This document shows, piece by piece, positions 6,861 to 14,712 of a DNA stretch of 17,926 nt (positions are counted from its first letter, which is position 1; every line of letters starts with the position of its first letter). The position numbers and the translations under genes were made by a program. A model generated the notes under the pieces. That model was not told the origin of the DNA, did no database searches, and saw only the letters and a program-made list of their open reading frames with translations. The DNA lies in NCBI GenBank assembly GCA_003345595.1, contig PRDI01000047.1, positions 1 to 17,926 on the forward strand, given 5' to 3'. The DNA comes from Candidatus Thorarchaeota archaeon. Lineage in GTDB: Archaea > Asgardarchaeota > Thorarchaeia > Thorarchaeales > Thorarchaeaceae.

Positions 6861-8228
6861 TCAAGCTTCCGGCTTGCTCTGTTTCCTGAGCTTGTGTTTC
6901 TTGACGAAATCGGTCAGGACATCGAGGAGGTCTGGTTTCCCTATCTCCTGAAGATCATACCTTACTCTGGTGCTTGGCTTGTTGATTTTCAGAAGACGCG
7001 TCAGGTCAATAGGCGTCCCCACAACAATGGCGTCCACGTCTGCTTTGTTAATGGTTTCTTCAAGTTCCTTCATCTGTGCCTTTCCATAGCCCATGGCAGG
7101 CAGTACTTCTCTGAGATGCTTGTACTTCTCGAACGTGGCTTGAATCGTGCCGACAGCGAATGGTCTGGGGTCAACAATCGTGGCACCACACTTGCGTGCG
7201 GCAATGTATGCCGCTCCGTATGGCATGCCACCATGTGTGACAGTTGGACCGTCCTCAATGGCGATGACTCTCTTACCCCGAATCACGGATACATCCCCCA
7301 CACTCAGAGGAGAGGCGGCATCAATAACGATTGCCTTAGGGTTCACTCTCTCTATGTTCGCCCTCACCTTCTCGACGTTTTCATAGTCTGCTGTGTCAAT
7401 CTTGTTTATGATGACAACGTCTGCCATTCTCAGGTTTGTTTCGCCGGGATAGTACGTGACTTCGTGACCTGCTCTATGTGGGTCGGTCACGACAATGAGT
7501 AAGTCGGGCTTGTAGAAGGAGAAGTCGTTGTTTCCACCGTCCCACGTGATGACGTCTGCCTCTTTCTGCGCCATGTCGAGGATCTTGCCGTAGTCGACGC
7601 CTGCGTAAAGAGTCACTCCCGCGCTAATCATCGGCTCATACTCTTCACGTTCCTCAATCGTGCAATTATAGCGGTCCATGTCAGCCAGCGTGGCATACCT
7701 CTGTGCTATCTGTGTTGTCAGATCCGGATCGTAAGGCATGGGGTGTCTGACGTTTACTGGCTTGAAACCCATCTGGACAAGCAGAGTGTTGATCTTCCTG
7801 GATGTCTGGCTCTTCCCGCATCCAGTCCTGACCGCACACACGGCAATAACCGGTTTGTTGCTCTTCAGCATCGTGGTCTTGGGACCCATGATTCTGAAGT
7901 CTGGACCAAGAGAGTTCACCCAAGCAATCTTGTGTCCGACTGTTTCGTAGGGCAGATCGGAGTAGGCTAAAACACACTGATGAACATCAAACTTCTGTAT
8001 GAGTTCTGGCAGCTTATGTTCGGGGTATATCTTGATACCCTTGGGATAGAGCTTCCCTGAGAGCTCTGGGGGATAGATTCTGTCCTCTATGCCGGGTATC
8101 TGCTCCGCAGTGAACGCCACAACCTCGTACTGTTCGTTGTCCCTGAAGAAGACGTTGAAGTTATGGAAATCACGGCCCGCTGCGCCCATGATGATTACCC
8201 TAGTCCTGCTCATTGATTTCGCCGCCAT
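6861..8228 (-). CDS. COG2403 P-loop ligase, arginine synthetase ArcE-like (often annotated as cyclic 2,3-diphosphoglycerate synthetase or GTPase)
   Basis: GAAGRDFHNFN N-terminus, AVRTGCGKSQTSR P-loop, RHPMPY, TIEEREEYEP, WDGGNND, INKID, EDGPTVTHGGM, LPAMGY. GGAGG SD upstream. Confidence 0.85.
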   Translation of the reverse strand: MAAKSMSRTRVIIMGAAGRDFHNFNVFFRDNEQYEVVAFTAEQIPGIEDRIYPPELSGKLYPKGIKIYPEHKLPELIQKFDVHQCVLAYSDLPYETVGHKIAWVNSLGPDFRIMGPKTTMLKSNKPVIAVCAVRTGCGKSQTSRKINTLLVQMGFKPVNVRHPMPYDPDLTTQIAQRYATLADMDRYNCTIEEREEYEPMISAGVTLYAGVDYGKILDMAQKEADVITWDGGNNDFSFYKPDLLIVVTDPHRAGHEVTYYPGETNLRMADVVIINKIDTADYENVEKVRANIERVNPKAIVIDAASPLSVGDVSVIRGKRVIAIEDGPTVTHGGMPYGAAYIAARKCGATIVDPRPFAVGTIQATFEKYKHLREVLPAMGYGKAQMKELEETINKADVDAIVVGTPIDLTRLLKINKPSTRVRYDLQEIGKPDLLDVLTDFVKKHKLRKQSKPEA

Positions 8229-8504
8229 TGCATGAACCTCCTGGTTGGTCGGCCGACGAGCCTTTGTCGTACGTAATAAGCTATTGGTGTTGTCAAGCTC
8301 TCTTCACTCGGAAGGACGAACTCGCTCTTGGATTTGAGTTGGGCTTGAGTCCGTCGAAAAATGAGACGCCAAAAAACCGAGCTATTGGTTTCTAGAACCT
8401 CCTTTCGCAAAATCGAAACATAATAACAACATCTAAATACGCCGGGTCGGTAACGGTTCCAGAGCTGCCTTGAGGAGACTATTCCGAACTGTCGGGGTGA
8501 AACA

Positions 8505-9056
8505 TTGAAGCTCGTGGACCTTGCTCAGGAGTCGATACGTCTGCTTGAGGAGTCCGGTGCCCAAGGTATCCGAAGCGATGTTCTGGCTGAGAAGCTCCAG
8601 AGTCCCAAGCGGAGAGTCTACGACATCGTTGCCATCCTCAAGGCTCTGGGCTTCGTATCTACAAAGCGCAGGTCTGACGGCACCACTTTGACATGGGTAG
8701 ACCCTAGGGCCGGTCTGGTTGAGCGTGCTCAGTATGAGGACCTCAAGGCGAATCTTAGCGAAGCAGTAATGACGAAGAACAAGCTCCAAGACCAAGTCGC
8801 AGAGCTGAATGAGCGACTGCGTGTCGCACGAACCAAGATTCGAAAGGAAACCACGACAGTCGAAACTGTTCGTAAGGCAGAGTTCGATACGACTCAACTT
8901 CGGGTTCGGCCTGTATCCAGCTTGGGGTTCAAGAGGGTGACCGACTCAGGCATGGAAGTAGTCATCGAAACTCAGGATCCGGGAATGACAGTAGATCCTT
9001 CAGTTATGGGAGTCGATGAGGCCGAGGCCGTGATCCGTAACTTGGAGCGCGTATAG
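8505..9056 (+). CDS. E2F/DP-family winged-helix transcription factor-like protein with coiled coil
   Basis: LAEKLQSPKRRVYDIVAILKALGFV...LTW matches the E2F/DP RRxYD signature and is followed by a heptad coiled coil. TTG start preceded by GGGGTGA. Confidence 0.75.
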   Translation: MKLVDLAQESIRLLEESGAQGIRSDVLAEKLQSPKRRVYDIVAILKALGFVSTKRRSDGTTLTWVDPRAGLVERAQYEDLKANLSEAVMTKNKLQDQVAELNERLRVARTKIRKETTTVETVRKAEFDTTQLRVRPVSSLGFKRVTDSGMEVVIETQDPGMTVDPSVMGVDEAEAVIRNLERV

Positions 9057-9569: not shown

Positions 9570-10697
9570 CTGCCCGAAACCAACCTAGACATCGCCTTTG
9601 TGGTAGACACAACAGGCTCAATGAAAGACGACATAGTTGCTGTCAGAGACAATCTCTTCAGCATAGTCGACAAGATAGTGGCACGGACTTCAGGGCTCCG
9701 AATCAGATTCGGGGTTGTGTCCTATCGTGATCATCCACCGCAAGACCATACCTACGTGACACGTGTGTTTGACTTCAGCAGCAAGATCAAGGTAGTGCAT
9801 AAGGAGATATCAGATCTGAACCCTTCCGAAGGTGGGGACACGCCTGAGGCGGTTGCTGACGGTCTGTATGATGCTCGAACAAAACTCTCATGGGAGAAGA
9901 GCTCATACAAGGTCCTTCTTCTAGTGGGGGATGCACCCCCTCATGGAAGAGACTATAACTCACTCGCCGATGACTACTTCCCAAATGGATGTCCAGATGG
10001 ACATGACCCCAAGATAGAGGTCCAAGAGCTGAAGAAGGCGTACGGCAACACAGTTTTCATATTCGTGTGTGGATGCAATCCTCTGGTCGAACCATCTTTC
10101 AGAAGTATAGCAGAGTCTGTGGAAGACGGAAAGTACTATTCGTTGCTGAACGCACCTGAGCTGCCCGACGCGATTCTACGTATACTCGAAGGAGTGAGTG
10201 ACCTCATTGAGGAGGACCGCCGTGTCCTTGCCTACTACGCCTCGCACGATGGTTCCTTTGACTTGGTCGAGGCAGCAACTGAGCTGTCCGTGGCCCTCAG
10301 AGAGCTGAAGACATCATTATCAAGACTGATGGAGCTCGGGCGCATACCTGCGTGGCCGAAGGGTCGACCACTCGCTCCGTCTCAACTAGGTCTATCGGTG
10401 GAACTGGGTGAAGTGCCGAGCGCCCTGTTGCCCGGGAAGGCCTTCAACTACAGGATCAGAGTGAAGAATCCAAGTCCCGCGACCGCAAGTGTCAGGGTTG
10501 TTGTAACACTGGTGACATCCGAAGGAATCTCAGAGGTCGCTAACGAGTCAAGGGAGGTTGGTCCGAAGTCAGATCAACAGATTGAGTTGAAGCTAACACC
10601 AATGTCAGATGTGAAAGAGAAAGCTAGCGTCAGAGTAGAGGTCCTTTATGGGTCCAAGTCAATGGCCACCAGGATCTACGAAACGCGTATCTATTGA
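9570..10697 (+). CDS. vWA-domain protein with intact MIDAS, followed by a winged helix and an Ig-like C-terminal domain
   Basis: LDIAFVVDTTGSM, GVVSYRDH, GGDTPEA, LVGDAPPHG; then FDLVEAATELSVALRELKTSLSRLMELGRI (wHTH); then beta-rich YRIRVKNP...GPKSDQQIELKL. Start inferred at CTG 9570 (in-frame TGA at 9561, GGAGTGA upstream). Confidence 0.8.
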   Translation: MPETNLDIAFVVDTTGSMKDDIVAVRDNLFSIVDKIVARTSGLRIRFGVVSYRDHPPQDHTYVTRVFDFSSKIKVVHKEISDLNPSEGGDTPEAVADGLYDARTKLSWEKSSYKVLLLVGDAPPHGRDYNSLADDYFPNGCPDGHDPKIEVQELKKAYGNTVFIFVCGCNPLVEPSFRSIAESVEDGKYYSLLNAPELPDAILRILEGVSDLIEEDRRVLAYYASHDGSFDLVEAATELSVALRELKTSLSRLMELGRIPAWPKGRPLAPSQLGLSVELGEVPSALLPGKAFNYRIRVKNPSPATASVRVVVTLVTSEGISEVANESREVGPKSDQQIELKLTPMSDVKEKASVRVEVLYGSKSMATRIYETRIY

Positions 10698-10710
10698 GGA
10701 GTGGCTGGCA

Positions 10711-11601
10711 TTGAAGATCAGAGCAATGCGTGGGGGCGACCAGAAGGGGATTTCCTTTCTGAGCCCTTCATCGGGGGCGTCCCTTCTAGGAAACACAGTG
10801 AAGGTCTCATACGCGAACCGGTCCTTGCTCAGTGACATTCGAGCTTCCAAGAGCGTTCCCGAGGAGACAATAGTGCTCGATTCACGGCTCTTTGATGATC
10901 TTCGTCTTGAGGGTGAATCCGAGGTAGAGGTCGAAAAGGTCAATGAGCGTTTGCCGTTTTGTGAAGAGGTTGAGTTGGTGTATTGGGTGTTGGACAGGGT
11001 CGCTTCTGGGATATCGATGCGCTCAGAGGACTTCCGAGCATTCCTCGACGGCCGCATTCTGAAGACCGGTCAGAAATTCGTGCTCCCGGAGCGCGGGGTC
11101 ACGTTTAGGGTTGAACGACTTCGTCCGACCGCTGCTTCAACGCAGGCCGCTCGAGTGGGACGGAAACGGCCTCCTCGAATCGAGGTCCGTTCCGGTGAAG
11201 AAGATCGGTTGTTTCCTGCTCGAGACAAGAGTACCGTGCTTTCTTCTCTTGCCAGCACGGAAGTGCCTGAGAGTGTTGCTGAGGAGAAGGCTGACACTGC
11301 GGATAACCTGTTGCGCCGCTTGGCGGAGGTGAGCCGGGAGCTGGATGAAATCGAGACTCTTGACCTTCAGAGAAGGATTGAAAACCTCGAAGGCCGCATG
11401 TCCTCGTTGACAGGAACAGAGGGAACAGCGGCTTCGGAAACAAGCACTGGACTACGGGACCTGCCAGTTGTCTCCGGAGCACCGTCCAAGAATCTCTATG
11501 TTCGACTTAAAGAGGTAGTTGACCGCCTTGAGTCGCTGTCATCCAGACTGGAGGATTTGGAGCGCCGAATTGAAACTCTAGCTGAGAGGAAGAAGAGGTA
11601 G
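10711..11601 (+). CDS. CDC48/p97 N-domain-like protein with C-terminal coiled coils, no ATPase domain
   Basis: TTG start after GAGGAG gives MKIRAMRGGDQKGISFL, which parallels MKLEIVDGGDLKGYANL of the 16305 protein. ETIVLDSRLFDDLRLEGESEVEV and LDGRILKTGQKF...FRVERLRP are CDC48_N/CDC48_2-like. Two C-terminal heptad segments. Confidence 0.7.
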   Translation: MKIRAMRGGDQKGISFLSPSSGASLLGNTVKVSYANRSLLSDIRASKSVPEETIVLDSRLFDDLRLEGESEVEVEKVNERLPFCEEVELVYWVLDRVASGISMRSEDFRAFLDGRILKTGQKFVLPERGVTFRVERLRPTAASTQAARVGRKRPPRIEVRSGEEDRLFPARDKSTVLSSLASTEVPESVAEEKADTADNLLRRLAEVSRELDEIETLDLQRRIENLEGRMSSLTGTEGTAASETSTGLRDLPVVSGAPSKNLYVRLKEVVDRLESLSSRLEDLERRIETLAERKKR

Positions 11602-11912: not shown

Positions 11913-14546
11913 CTACCGGGGTAGGAGTTTCCGTATTGCCGAAAGAAGGTAATCATCGAAGACCTGTGCAGAGAATGACCTGACCGGCACTATGCTGCCA
12001 TTGACGGACCTGAGAAGTCTGCGGGCCTCTCTGTCATCGAAGCCCTCACCAACTCCCAATAAGTCCAGCCGATATCTTTCGTGATCAGAGATGGCCTTAA
12101 GGAAGGGTGCGCTTTCTTCCTCTTGGCCACCCAGTTTGCTTCCTATCAGAACTACCAGTGTTGGTCTGTCTTTGCCGAAGTCTTCAAGAAGCTCTGCTAT
12201 CGAGCGGTAAGCAACAGACACATTGAGTCTTCCACCAACGTCTCGCGCAGCATCGAAGATAGACAACAGAAGTGAGGTCATGACCTCGTGAGATGGCAGG
12301 TCTTCGGCGAATTCGGCCGAAGCTTGGACTGAGTTGCCTTTCTGAATACAGTACTTGTGAGCCTGTTCGGAAACCACAACAAACCCGAGGTGTCCTTCAG
12401 TGCGGTTCACAGCCATCTGACTGATAGTCAGCAAGGAAACTAGCGCGGCCAGTTGTGCCCTCGTGATCTGTGCTTCCAAGCCAGAGAGAAACTCCGTAAG
12501 GTCGGGCATGTTGTCCATGAGTGAGGATAGCCTTCTCCGAACCGAGGCATCCGTTGACAGATTGACATCCTTCACTGCCATACTCTGATCCATGAGCAAA
12601 CACAGTATTACATTGATTTCCTCGAATGCTTCAGCCGGTCTGAAAACCAGTCCTTCGGAAGGGGCCTCACCAAGCTGTCCCGAACTCAACTCTGGTTCTG
12701 TCCGGACCAGATTCATTGTGAACCTCTGTCCTTGTTCTCCGAGGTACAACCTTGTGCCGAAGCCGAATGCACGGCCCGCGAGTGTCTTCTTAATGGAGTC
12801 TTCGTGAAGGTGTATATGCGAGGAAAGCTCCCCGCTCGTCCAAGGGTCTATTGCTTCGTAAGCGAAGATCATCTCTCGTAGATCTGCTACGTGGCCCTCA
12901 TACTTCACTAGGTCGACTGCAGCAGAGCTGTCCAGTCCGACAAGCTGCGCGTCTGGACGCGAAACCATGACTCTCCGAAGCGCTGCATCGCCTTCTGCTG
13001 CTCGTGCTGACCACCACTGGCCGCTGCCGCCTTCTAGGGCAAGAACTGTTTCGCCGTCCGAAACCCCCAAGGCCCTCATATCGTCAGATGAGATCATCAT
13101 GACACCGGGTTTGGTTTCTCGGATATCTACCGCAAAGTGGAGCCCAGATAGAATCTCTTGGGGGTTCCTGACTTGCAGACACTTGAGCACAGAAAGATCG
13201 AACTGGTTCAGGTGAGCCGGTGAATCCAGCACAGGGCCTGAAGAGTTTGTTGATGCCCTGACGAGAGTCGCGTATATGTCGTTCTTCCTTGAGCTGAGGC
13301 TCTCGGCGAATGTGCGCTTCCAGCCGGACACCCTAAGTGTCCCATCCCGCTCCACCAAGACAGCAAGGCTGGTTGCGGCCTTAGCTGATGACTCTCCCAG
13401 CGTCACCACCGCACTGCTCGCGCTGACCGAGCCTTCGTTTGACAGCATGTGGTCGACAGACAGGATATTCTGTCTTCCCTTTGTGCCCAGAAGCATGAGA
13501 ACCCTAGCCAATTCCTTCAGACATAGTCTTCCAAACTGCCCCTCGGATATGACAGTATCATCGTTGTCGACATAGCTCAGGAATGAGGGTCTTGGGGGAA
13601 GAATGGAGAGTAGATTGGTGCCCAGTATTCTCTGCAGGTCCTCCGGAGAAGCGGCCAAGTTCCTACTGAACAGGTAGCTGAGAATTTCCGAGATGCTCTC
13701 CCCTTCGTGTGTTTCGGGATAGGCGCTTGCAAACACGAGTCTAGTGGACCATGACGAATTCTGACCGTTCTTACGAAGATCGGATATGATTGCAGTAAGA
13801 GACGATATGGTTGCTCCACAGGTAAGCAGTCTTGTGTTAGGGATTTCCAGTAGCTGCGTTATCTTGGATCCCCATGTGCTGTGACTCCTGACAGCGAAGA
13901 ATAGGTTGGGACTACTTAGGCCGGTGTCCCTCAGGCCAATCAGCCATCTGAGGAGGGCGTCAGTGTCGTCAGGAGTGTTCAATTCCATGAACAAGGGCAG
14001 ACCGGATTTGATGTATTTCAGGACATCAGAACCGTTCATTCCTCTCATGATGTCCTGCAAATCGGCAGTCGTCAAGGCGCAGCCCCAACCTGGGTTGCTT
14101 CTTCGGCCATTGCGCATGTCTTGAATATGATACAGTCTTGGACTGTACGGCAGTGCGAGTGACCATCTTTGAGTGAGTTCGGAATTCCTGCCCTGCTGTG
14201 AGTCAGGGAGTGATCTTCCTGCAACTGCGATCAGGGGCCTGGCAAAGAACATGTCTACCAGCCAGCTTGCCATCGAAGGATCGAGAGTGCTGGCGCAGAG
14301 CTCGCTCAGGATTACCGGTTTCTTGAGATAGTCGTACACTCTGCGGGGGAGATACCTGAAAGCCCCCGGGTATTGAGTGGCCAAGTCGTGCAGGTGGTCC
14401 TCAACCATCGCAAAGTATGAAAGTGCTCTTCCCGGGTCGAAGACACGGACTTGTGTTCCAGCCTTGACAATGCCTAGCTGGAGCATCGCGTCCACAACGA
14501 AGAACTGCCTGATTTCGTTGCTCGCCGTGTCTTCAACCACTATCAT
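11913..14546 (-). CDS. Large multidomain protein: degenerate amidohydrolase barrel + accessory domain + CDC48-N-like domain + degenerate vWA
   Basis: Colinear similarity to both the 14713 and 16305 proteins, with metal ligands lost. ATG at 14546 follows GGAG and aligns with the start of the 14713 protein; the ORF is open from 14591. Confidence 0.75.
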   Translation of the reverse strand: MIVVEDTASNEIRQFFVVDAMLQLGIVKAGTQVRVFDPGRALSYFAMVEDHLHDLATQYPGAFRYLPRRVYDYLKKPVILSELCASTLDPSMASWLVDMFFARPLIAVAGRSLPDSQQGRNSELTQRWSLALPYSPRLYHIQDMRNGRRSNPGWGCALTTADLQDIMRGMNGSDVLKYIKSGLPLFMELNTPDDTDALLRWLIGLRDTGLSSPNLFFAVRSHSTWGSKITQLLEIPNTRLLTCGATISSLTAIISDLRKNGQNSSWSTRLVFASAYPETHEGESISEILSYLFSRNLAASPEDLQRILGTNLLSILPPRPSFLSYVDNDDTVISEGQFGRLCLKELARVLMLLGTKGRQNILSVDHMLSNEGSVSASSAVVTLGESSAKAATSLAVLVERDGTLRVSGWKRTFAESLSSRKNDIYATLVRASTNSSGPVLDSPAHLNQFDLSVLKCLQVRNPQEILSGLHFAVDIRETKPGVMMISSDDMRALGVSDGETVLALEGGSGQWWSARAAEGDAALRRVMVSRPDAQLVGLDSSAAVDLVKYEGHVADLREMIFAYEAIDPWTSGELSSHIHLHEDSIKKTLAGRAFGFGTRLYLGEQGQRFTMNLVRTEPELSSGQLGEAPSEGLVFRPAEAFEEINVILCLLMDQSMAVKDVNLSTDASVRRRLSSLMDNMPDLTEFLSGLEAQITRAQLAALVSLLTISQMAVNRTEGHLGFVVVSEQAHKYCIQKGNSVQASAEFAEDLPSHEVMTSLLLSIFDAARDVGGRLNVSVAYRSIAELLEDFGKDRPTLVVLIGSKLGGQEEESAPFLKAISDHERYRLDLLGVGEGFDDREARRLLRSVNGSIVPVRSFSAQVFDDYLLSAIRKLLPR

Positions 14547-14712
14547 TGCATCATACTCCGCAAAGGCGGCTGTCGTGGACCAACACACCAATCGATATAT
14601 CCATAGTGCAAATGGACATTATGTCGTGTCACTGACTTGAACTCGTCAGTTGACTGGCATGAGATGGTTTATCACGAGTCGGTACACCCTAGTCTGACGG
14701 AGAAGGACCCAG

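Follow-up and report, generated by a model that had tools for sequence, protein, structure and literature searches.

A Thorarchaeota homologue of E2F/DP transcription factors with a predicted self-pairing coiled coil and candidate E2F-type sites before thymidylate synthase

E2F factors drive the entry into S phase in eukaryotes, and the gene described here encodes, as its profile matches show, a genuine winged-helix protein of the E2F/DP type in a member of Thorarchaeota, a group of the Asgard archaea. The gene lies at positions 8505–9056, on the forward strand, of the window, i.e., the whole stretch of 17,926 nucleotides that was analysed. We consider it probable, at roughly 0.6, that this E2F-like protein acts as a homodimer that reads near-palindromic E2F-type sites and regulates the thymidylate synthase gene (thyA) and one other gene pair. 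According to the mechanism that we propose, the N-terminal E2F-type winged helix, which carries the base-contacting motif RRxYD and is followed directly by a long helix and then by a small conserved beta domain, would occur twice in the active form, as two copies of the protein would pair through a parallel coil, presenting two identical reading heads to the DNA. The homodimer would then read near-palindromic TTSGCGCS sites with the consensus TTTGGCGCGRAA. The first target would be the thymidylate synthase gene, whose divergent neighbour is the gene for the anaerobic ribonucleotide reductase and whose site lies 81–168 nt upstream, and the second target would be the divergent pair formed by an EMC3/TMCO1-like gene and a gene for a protein of 89 amino acids. 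Activation and repression would both fit this scheme, as the sign of the regulation is not readable from sequence.

The gene is a Thorarchaeota member of an already published family of Asgard E2F/DP homologues and does not define a new family. Such homologues were described as arCOG02749 in most Asgard groups, and the conservation of their base-contacting residues led to the prediction that they recognize similar DNA motifs (Eme et al., 2023; Nature 618:992, Supplementary Information 4.1.5 and ESP table). The ESP table of the same study contains PF02319 sequences of the same layout, with a winged helix, a linker or coil and a tail ending in ...IE..PG.I.EP, and a review of the archaeal cell cycle also mentions E2F homologues in some Asgard genomes ("The Archaeal Cell Cycle," 2024, PMC7617429). 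Both sources settle in the affirmative the question, raised with the original prediction, of whether the family had already been reported in Asgard archaea. According to the published description the Asgard homologues have no dimerisation domain, and no report on their target sites or targets was found in the literature searched. Studies of the archaeal cell cycle still ask whether E2F regulatory logic already existed before eukaryotes (PMC7617429). Beyond the published description, we present a predicted self-pairing coiled coil and canonical E2F-type sites that are conserved before thymidylate synthase and at a further gene pair, and both points make this question directly testable with recombinant protein and short oligonucleotides, without the need of culturing the organism.

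The open reading frame and its E2F-type DNA-binding domain

The open reading frame is real, encodes 183 amino acids from a TTG start codon, and its exact translation is identical to the one quoted in the original prediction. The frame is open for just 18 codons 5' of the start, and the TTG at 8505 is the earliest possible start codon after the stop. A Shine-Dalgarno-like GGGGTG box (8494–8499, forward strand) is located 5 nt ahead of the TTG and is found in the same place in nearly all of the 30 orthologous upstream regions. Among 30 orthologues whose start was examined, 29 begin with TTG or GTG instead of ATG, behind the conserved box, which suggests a deliberately weak or regulated initiation of translation.

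The E2F-type winged-helix domain comprises residues 1–66 (8505–8702, forward strand) and represents the sole known domain of the protein. Pfam E2F_TDP (PF02319) was matched with 36.4 bits (E 4.3e-9) against a gathering cut-off of 25.7, and with 38.2 bits in a six-frame search of the genome, and the same family was the best Pfam match, above the cut-off, in 22 of 22 diverse members. AlphaFold2 (AF2) predicted residues 1–66 with a pLDDT of 84–88 and the topology helix-helix-helix-strand-strand, using 34 homologues. The recognition-helix motif RRVYD corresponds to residues 36–40 (R36 to D40; 8610–8624, forward strand) and aligns to the RRIYD of E2F8 and E2F4. Among 22 divergent Asgard members R36, R37, Y39, and D40 are invariant, and so is the tryptophan of the wing, W64. 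The original prediction had located this motif correctly and had recognized an E2F/DP homologue, and the latter claim is sustained by the Pfam score and by the profile searches described below. Its remark that a conserved asparagine is replaced by alanine was correct as well, since Ala43, three residues past RRxYD, is invariant in the Thorarchaeota alignment and E2F8, E2F4, and DP2 carry asparagine at this position. Given this substitution of Ala for Asn, the DNA specificity of the protein may differ from that of E2F and DP.

A search of PDB sequences with the family profile retrieved E2F8 (1.8e-12), E2F4 (2e-7), and DP2 (0.0056), the remaining matches being coiled coils only. Moreover, a profile built from 34 members was run against 1.8 billion representative proteins and reached additional Asgard proteins of the family, the most distant with about 25% identity, followed by proteins of 250–536 amino acids. 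These longer hits are eukaryotic-type E2Fs, because E2F_TDP is present in 45 of 46 and E2F_CC-MB in 24, while the DP C-terminal domain was found in none of them. A word-indexed search additionally showed that more than 120 database proteins share the whole 183-residue layout at 49–91% identity, and the lengths of the orthologues are nearly all between 180 and 201 amino acids. These database relatives, where named, belong to metagenome-assembled genomes (MAGs) of Thorarchaeota or Promethearchaeota, and every one of them is annotated as hypothetical.

Candidate E2F-type sites and putative targets

The E2F consensus is TTTSGCGC, and thymidylate synthase is a classical E2F target. In the genome analysed here, thyA (C1:1677–2306, reverse strand) has a thioredoxin-like gene and nrdD as divergent neighbours, and 27 of 29 relatives keep this thyA-nrdD arrangement. 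In 20 of these 27 relatives and in this genome (21/28) the intergenic region contains one strict TTSGCGCS site and no second one, always 81–168 nt ahead of the start codon of thyA. Genome-wide, the motif was matched 299 times in 2.73 Mb, a rate at which about two sites would be expected. The thyA sites have the consensus TTTGGCGCG(G/A)AA and are often palindromic, as in TTTCGCGCGAAA and TTTGGCGCGAAA, which would suit recognition by a homodimer. The spacer of this genome contains ATTGGCGCCAC (C1:2450–2460), at 144 nt from the thyA start, with TTTGGCGGAAG further on, and the site at C1:2450–2460 represents a weaker version, ATTGGCGCC. Once the loci were matched to genus labels, at least 10 genera were counted with thyA sites, in spacers that are otherwise different, related genomes not being independent of one another. 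Loci around the E2F-like gene, taken from the same set of genomes, served as a control, and their 99.7 kb contained a single match, compared with 28 and 38 in the two target sets. Judged by their sequence, the thyA sites match the textbook E2F consensus and are not mere GC-rich boxes. No site was seen in the 300 nt upstream of MCM in this genome, and class I or II ribonucleotide reductases were not found there, NrdD being present instead. Outside the GTDB family of this archaeon, three E2F-negative genomes, two of them with 25–28% GC, had no site, and ThyA was not found in five E2F-positive genomes.

The second putative target emerged from the list of genome-wide matches, in which TTTGGCGCGGAA (C64:1017–1028) is located midway between the EMC3/TMCO1-like gene and the conserved gene for the 89-residue protein, and, when the 350 nt upstream of the EMC3-like gene were compared among orthologues, a TTSGCGCS site was present in 20 of 29 regions. 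The 89-residue protein (MMMFTRMLRRQGFYRVKNQ...; C64:612–881, reverse strand; L083, P0235) is conserved and encoded divergently to the EMC3/TMCO1-like gene, and it had no match in Pfam or the PDB. The other genome-wide TTSGCGCS matches precede unrelated genes (Roadblock/LC7, AHSA1-like, luciferase-like, and others) that share no common theme among those annotated. The sole perfect palindrome among the E2F-type sites of the genome, TTTGGCGCCAAA (C75:73864–73875; L050, 4365–4376), lies about 140 nt upstream of the gene for a FAD_binding_2 flavoprotein of the succinate dehydrogenase/fumarate reductase type, after the fumarase genes, and its position there may be due to chance.

We infer the link between the protein and the TTSGCGCS sites because RRxYD is conserved and the sites match the E2F consensus, and it should be taken as a candidate link, given that another factor could bind these sites. 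It is conceivable, although we judge it rather unlikely, that the protein is an E2F-type binder and the TTSGCGCS elements belong to another factor, the protein acting elsewhere, e.g., in autoregulation through TTCGnnAAATCG or in the organisation of DNA. Such a role would agree with the upstream region of its own gene, where an element distinct from the E2F-type site accompanies the promoter. The putative promoter of the E2F-like gene contains a TATA-like box, CTAAATAC (8433–8440, forward strand), tentatively assigned from a conserved (C/T)TAAATA or ATATATA block at equal distance in the upstream regions of the orthologues, and about 15 nt 5' of it lies the conserved element TTTCGCAAAATCGAAA (8403–8418, forward strand), with the family consensus TTCGnnAAATCG, which is present in 22 of 31 upstream regions, including this one, 103–134 nt before the start codon. 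The pattern of this own-promoter element is TTCG-nn-AAATCG, and in this genome TTTCGCAAAATCGAAA has the inverted arms TTTCG/CGAAA. The alanine that the recognition helix carries where E2F and DP have asparagine would also be compatible with another factor at the TTSGCGCS sites, as would the relative G063 (91% complete), in which no E2F-like gene was detected and yet a site is present at the EMC3-like locus. However, the elements match the textbook E2F consensus and precede a gene of a classical E2F target class, the RRxYD motif is invariant, and the TTCGnnAAATCG element shows no enrichment in the rest of the genome (8 matches versus 0–17 for permuted motifs). Because of this lack of genome-wide enrichment the TTCGnnAAATCG element defines no regulon, and it was rejected as a regulon operator. 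In one Thorarchaeota genus the own-promoter element occurs in two copies, about 36 nt apart.

The regulation of thyA by a homodimeric E2F-like protein would also bear on the origin of the eukaryotic system. The connection of an E2F-type factor with the synthesis of DNA precursors may be older than eukaryotes, with a Thorarchaeota homodimer reading the palindromic TTTSGCGCSAAA before thymidylate synthase, beside ribonucleotide reductase, and with the E2F-DP heterodimer and its target logic descending from it. We offer this scenario tentatively, as the odds seem to us somewhat against it.

The coiled coil, its predicted pairing and the C-terminal tail

The heptad stretch pointed out in the original prediction turned out to be one single helix comprising residues 74–122 (8724–8870, forward strand), with an AF2 pLDDT of 90–95, which begins 10 residues past the wing tryptophan, i.e., where E2F has its own coiled coil. 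The homodimer model of residues 66–183 had an ipSAE of 0.42, the best of three controls scoring 0.00. This dimer score is barely at the mark, which among proteins of solved structure was attained by 20 of the 30 that form a pair of one chain and by 1 of the 23 that are single chains, and coiled coils are an easy case for such models. The homodimer runs agreed in at least 79% of the contacts, with a partner pLDDT of 55–56, and the confident contacts describe an in-register parallel coil over residues 68–112, the tail being placed without confidence. Modelling hence predicts that the protein pairs as a parallel coiled-coil homodimer, in line with the earlier suggestion that it is probably a homodimer.

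The C-terminal tail is about 60 residues long, beta-rich, and similar in size to the E2F marked box. AF2 modelling of residues 118–183 defined a family-specific beta domain (8886–9050, forward strand) with strands within residues 128–165 and a helix at 171–182; the strands were assigned to residues 133–136, 142–147, 152–156, and 161–164, and the helix core to residues 172–181. The tail had a pLDDT of 82.9 when it was modelled on its own, using 66 homologues, and it was poorly placed in the full-length model. The beta-rich tail had been anticipated, and its four strands and helix substantiate it as a folded unit; the tail could contribute a further contact within the dimer, or it could be a binding module for a ligand or partner.

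The original prediction had gone further and proposed that the protein keeps the whole E2F/DP architecture, in which case the coil and the beta tail would share an ancestor with the coiled-coil/marked-box module of eukaryotes. We regard this as improbable, even though several features are what it would lead one to expect. The parts follow each other in the same order and at the same spacing, with the helix starting 10 residues past the wing tryptophan, and the family profile aligns to eukaryotic E2Fs over positions 3–118, thus covering the DNA-binding domain and the coil, and up to position 178 in the case of one protist-type E2F. Additionally, hhalign of the region past the wing against E2F CC-MB gave a local match over the coil (42 coiled-coil columns, Prob 33%, P 4.5e-4), a similarity that composition alone can give, as composition is sufficient to align coiled coils; the tail, moreover, is beta-rich and has about the size of a marked box. 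Against a retained module, the window protein had no match to Pfam E2F_CC-MB (PF16421) or DP (PF08781) at E values up to 10, and both are absent from the families listed for the 22 diverse members. When the DNA-binding domain was removed and 20 eukaryotic CC-MB regions were used in hhalign, nothing was aligned over the marked box, the local match was restricted to the coil, and the global alignment had a Prob of 3.4%. The profile of the tail retrieved no E2F or DP chain among the PDB sequences, the best match being an SH3-like domain with an E value of 0.28, and the tail model had no convincing structural neighbour either, with a best Foldseek E value of 3.5 and no Z of 2 or higher among 48,161 chains in VIA-align, which is weak evidence for a domain of about 50 residues. 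Furthermore, natural variants of 120–137 amino acids keep the winged helix and the tail and have lost the coil, a pattern that appears unlike E2F.

The tail is a family-specific module with no recognisable marked box. We keep the common descent of tail and marked box as a slight chance and do not discard it entirely, because the missing structural match is weak evidence for a domain of 50 residues. Regarding the domain order that had been proposed, the E2F-type winged helix stands, the coiled coil that follows it is sustained by modelling, and the marked box does not stand, with Pfam, hhalign, the tail profile, Foldseek, and VIA-align all failing to detect one; likewise, of the Pfam families suggested as a check, E2F_TDP was found and E2F_CC-MB and DP were not.

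Two minor observations concern the tail and the short forms. The tail motif G-x-EVVIE-x-x-x-PG-x-x-V (residues 142–165; window positions 8928–8999) faintly resembles the first strands of KH domains, the likeness being to an archaeal CPSF (PDB 2ycb) at an E value of 0.77, which is not significant. Short variants with no coil are found among the proteins P0135, P0142, P0144, P0145, P0151, and P0233, and some Asgard genomes carry two PF02319 genes (families f21, f14, f15, and f16).

Comparison with known families, distribution and gene neighbourhood

Similar to the published Asgard E2F/DP homologues, the protein is small and restricted to Asgard archaea, has PF02319 as its sole Pfam domain, and conserves the base-contacting residues; unlike in their published description, the Thorarchaeota form has a confidently predicted long helix, modelled as a parallel homodimer, and a conserved folded tail. 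With the typical E2Fs (E2F1–6) and DP it shares the RRxYD helix and the wing tryptophan, its predicted coiled coil begins at the place, just past the wing, where E2F has one, and the candidate sites match the TTTSGCGC of typical E2Fs and are located before thymidylate synthase. In contrast to these proteins, the Thorarchaeota protein has no detectable marked box, no DP-like paralogue in this genome, and alanine in place of asparagine; it ends at residue 183, with no Rb-binding or transactivation region, and it is predicted to form a homodimer instead of the E2F-DP heterodimer. The atypical E2F7 and E2F8 resemble it in working without DP, and E2F8 is its best PDB sequence match, but they carry two DNA-binding domains per chain, whereas the protein described here has one and would obtain two reading heads by the pairing of the coil.

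In TrmB proteins too, the archaeal winged helix is followed by a dimerising helix. That the protein is an ordinary archaeal TrmB/MarR-type winged-helix regulator with a convergent RRxYD is nevertheless most improbable: Pfam TrmB (PF01978) was matched weakly, with 17.3 bits against its own cut-off of 25.6, and as a sub-threshold or weak match in 19 of 22 members, and Foldseek with the full-length monomer retrieved just generic winged-helix proteins (Z-alpha, MarR, and ArsR), a result that does not discriminate, while E2F_TDP was above its cut-off in all members, the search of 1.8 billion proteins found eukaryotic E2Fs and not the very abundant TrmB proteins, the only winged-helix chains in the PDB profile search were those of E2F8, E2F4, and DP2, and the protein had no Pfam match to TrmB_C, the sugar-binding C-terminal domain of TrmB. 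A TrmB or generic winged-helix identity was accordingly rejected on the sub-cut-off score and on profile searches that lead to E2F. Two outcomes had been named beforehand as speaking against an E2F/DP homologue with a full architecture; a best match to TrmB with no E2F_TDP signal was not seen, and a tail that has no marked-box-like fold match was indeed found.

The genome analysed here (83% complete) contains one PF02319 match, and no DP-like paralogue was found in it. The full-length protein is present in 72 of the 81 genomes of the GTDB family, including 21 of the 23 high-quality ones, and nearly all genomes of this family have one PF02319 match each; the E2F-like gene is, therefore, single-copy and close to universal in the family. 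Across the phylum, PF02319 was above the cut-off in 123 of 301 genomes and 17 of 30 families, several large families having no match, and none of 14 control genomes had one. The named relatives belong to MAGs of Thorarchaeota, Helarchaeota, Promethearchaeota, and Asgardarchaeia.

The gene order is kept in Thorarchaeota, with a cobW-like GTPase gene divergent upstream and a cyclophilin-like gene convergent downstream, followed by VWA genes. The upstream neighbour (window 6861–8228, reverse strand) encodes 455 amino acids and had only a partial match to cobW/HypB/UreG-type GTPases; it is also syntenic with the E2F-like gene in the Thorarchaeota locus L014, whose orthologue is 52% identical. Further downstream, two open reading frames on the forward strand that overlap by 50 nt (window 9600–10697 and 10648–11601) encode a VWA-domain protein and a protein of 317 amino acids, whose C-terminal coiled coil bears a weak resemblance to HSBP1. 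This overlapping pair is followed by an open reading frame of 892 amino acids (11913–14591, reverse strand) for which Pfam gave no match. In MAGs of Helarchaeota and Promethearchaeota the E2F-like gene is located between a CxxCxxCC gene and a Spt5-SecE-FtsZ cluster. More generally, a CxxCxxCC (PF03692) gene adjoins the E2F-like gene at the loci outside Thorarchaeota (L015, L016, L018, and L019), with Spt5-SecE-FtsZ in two lineages. At L019 the order is TBP, the CxxCxxCC gene, the E2F-like gene, and a cyclophilin-like gene, the last being a neighbour that is also present in the window.
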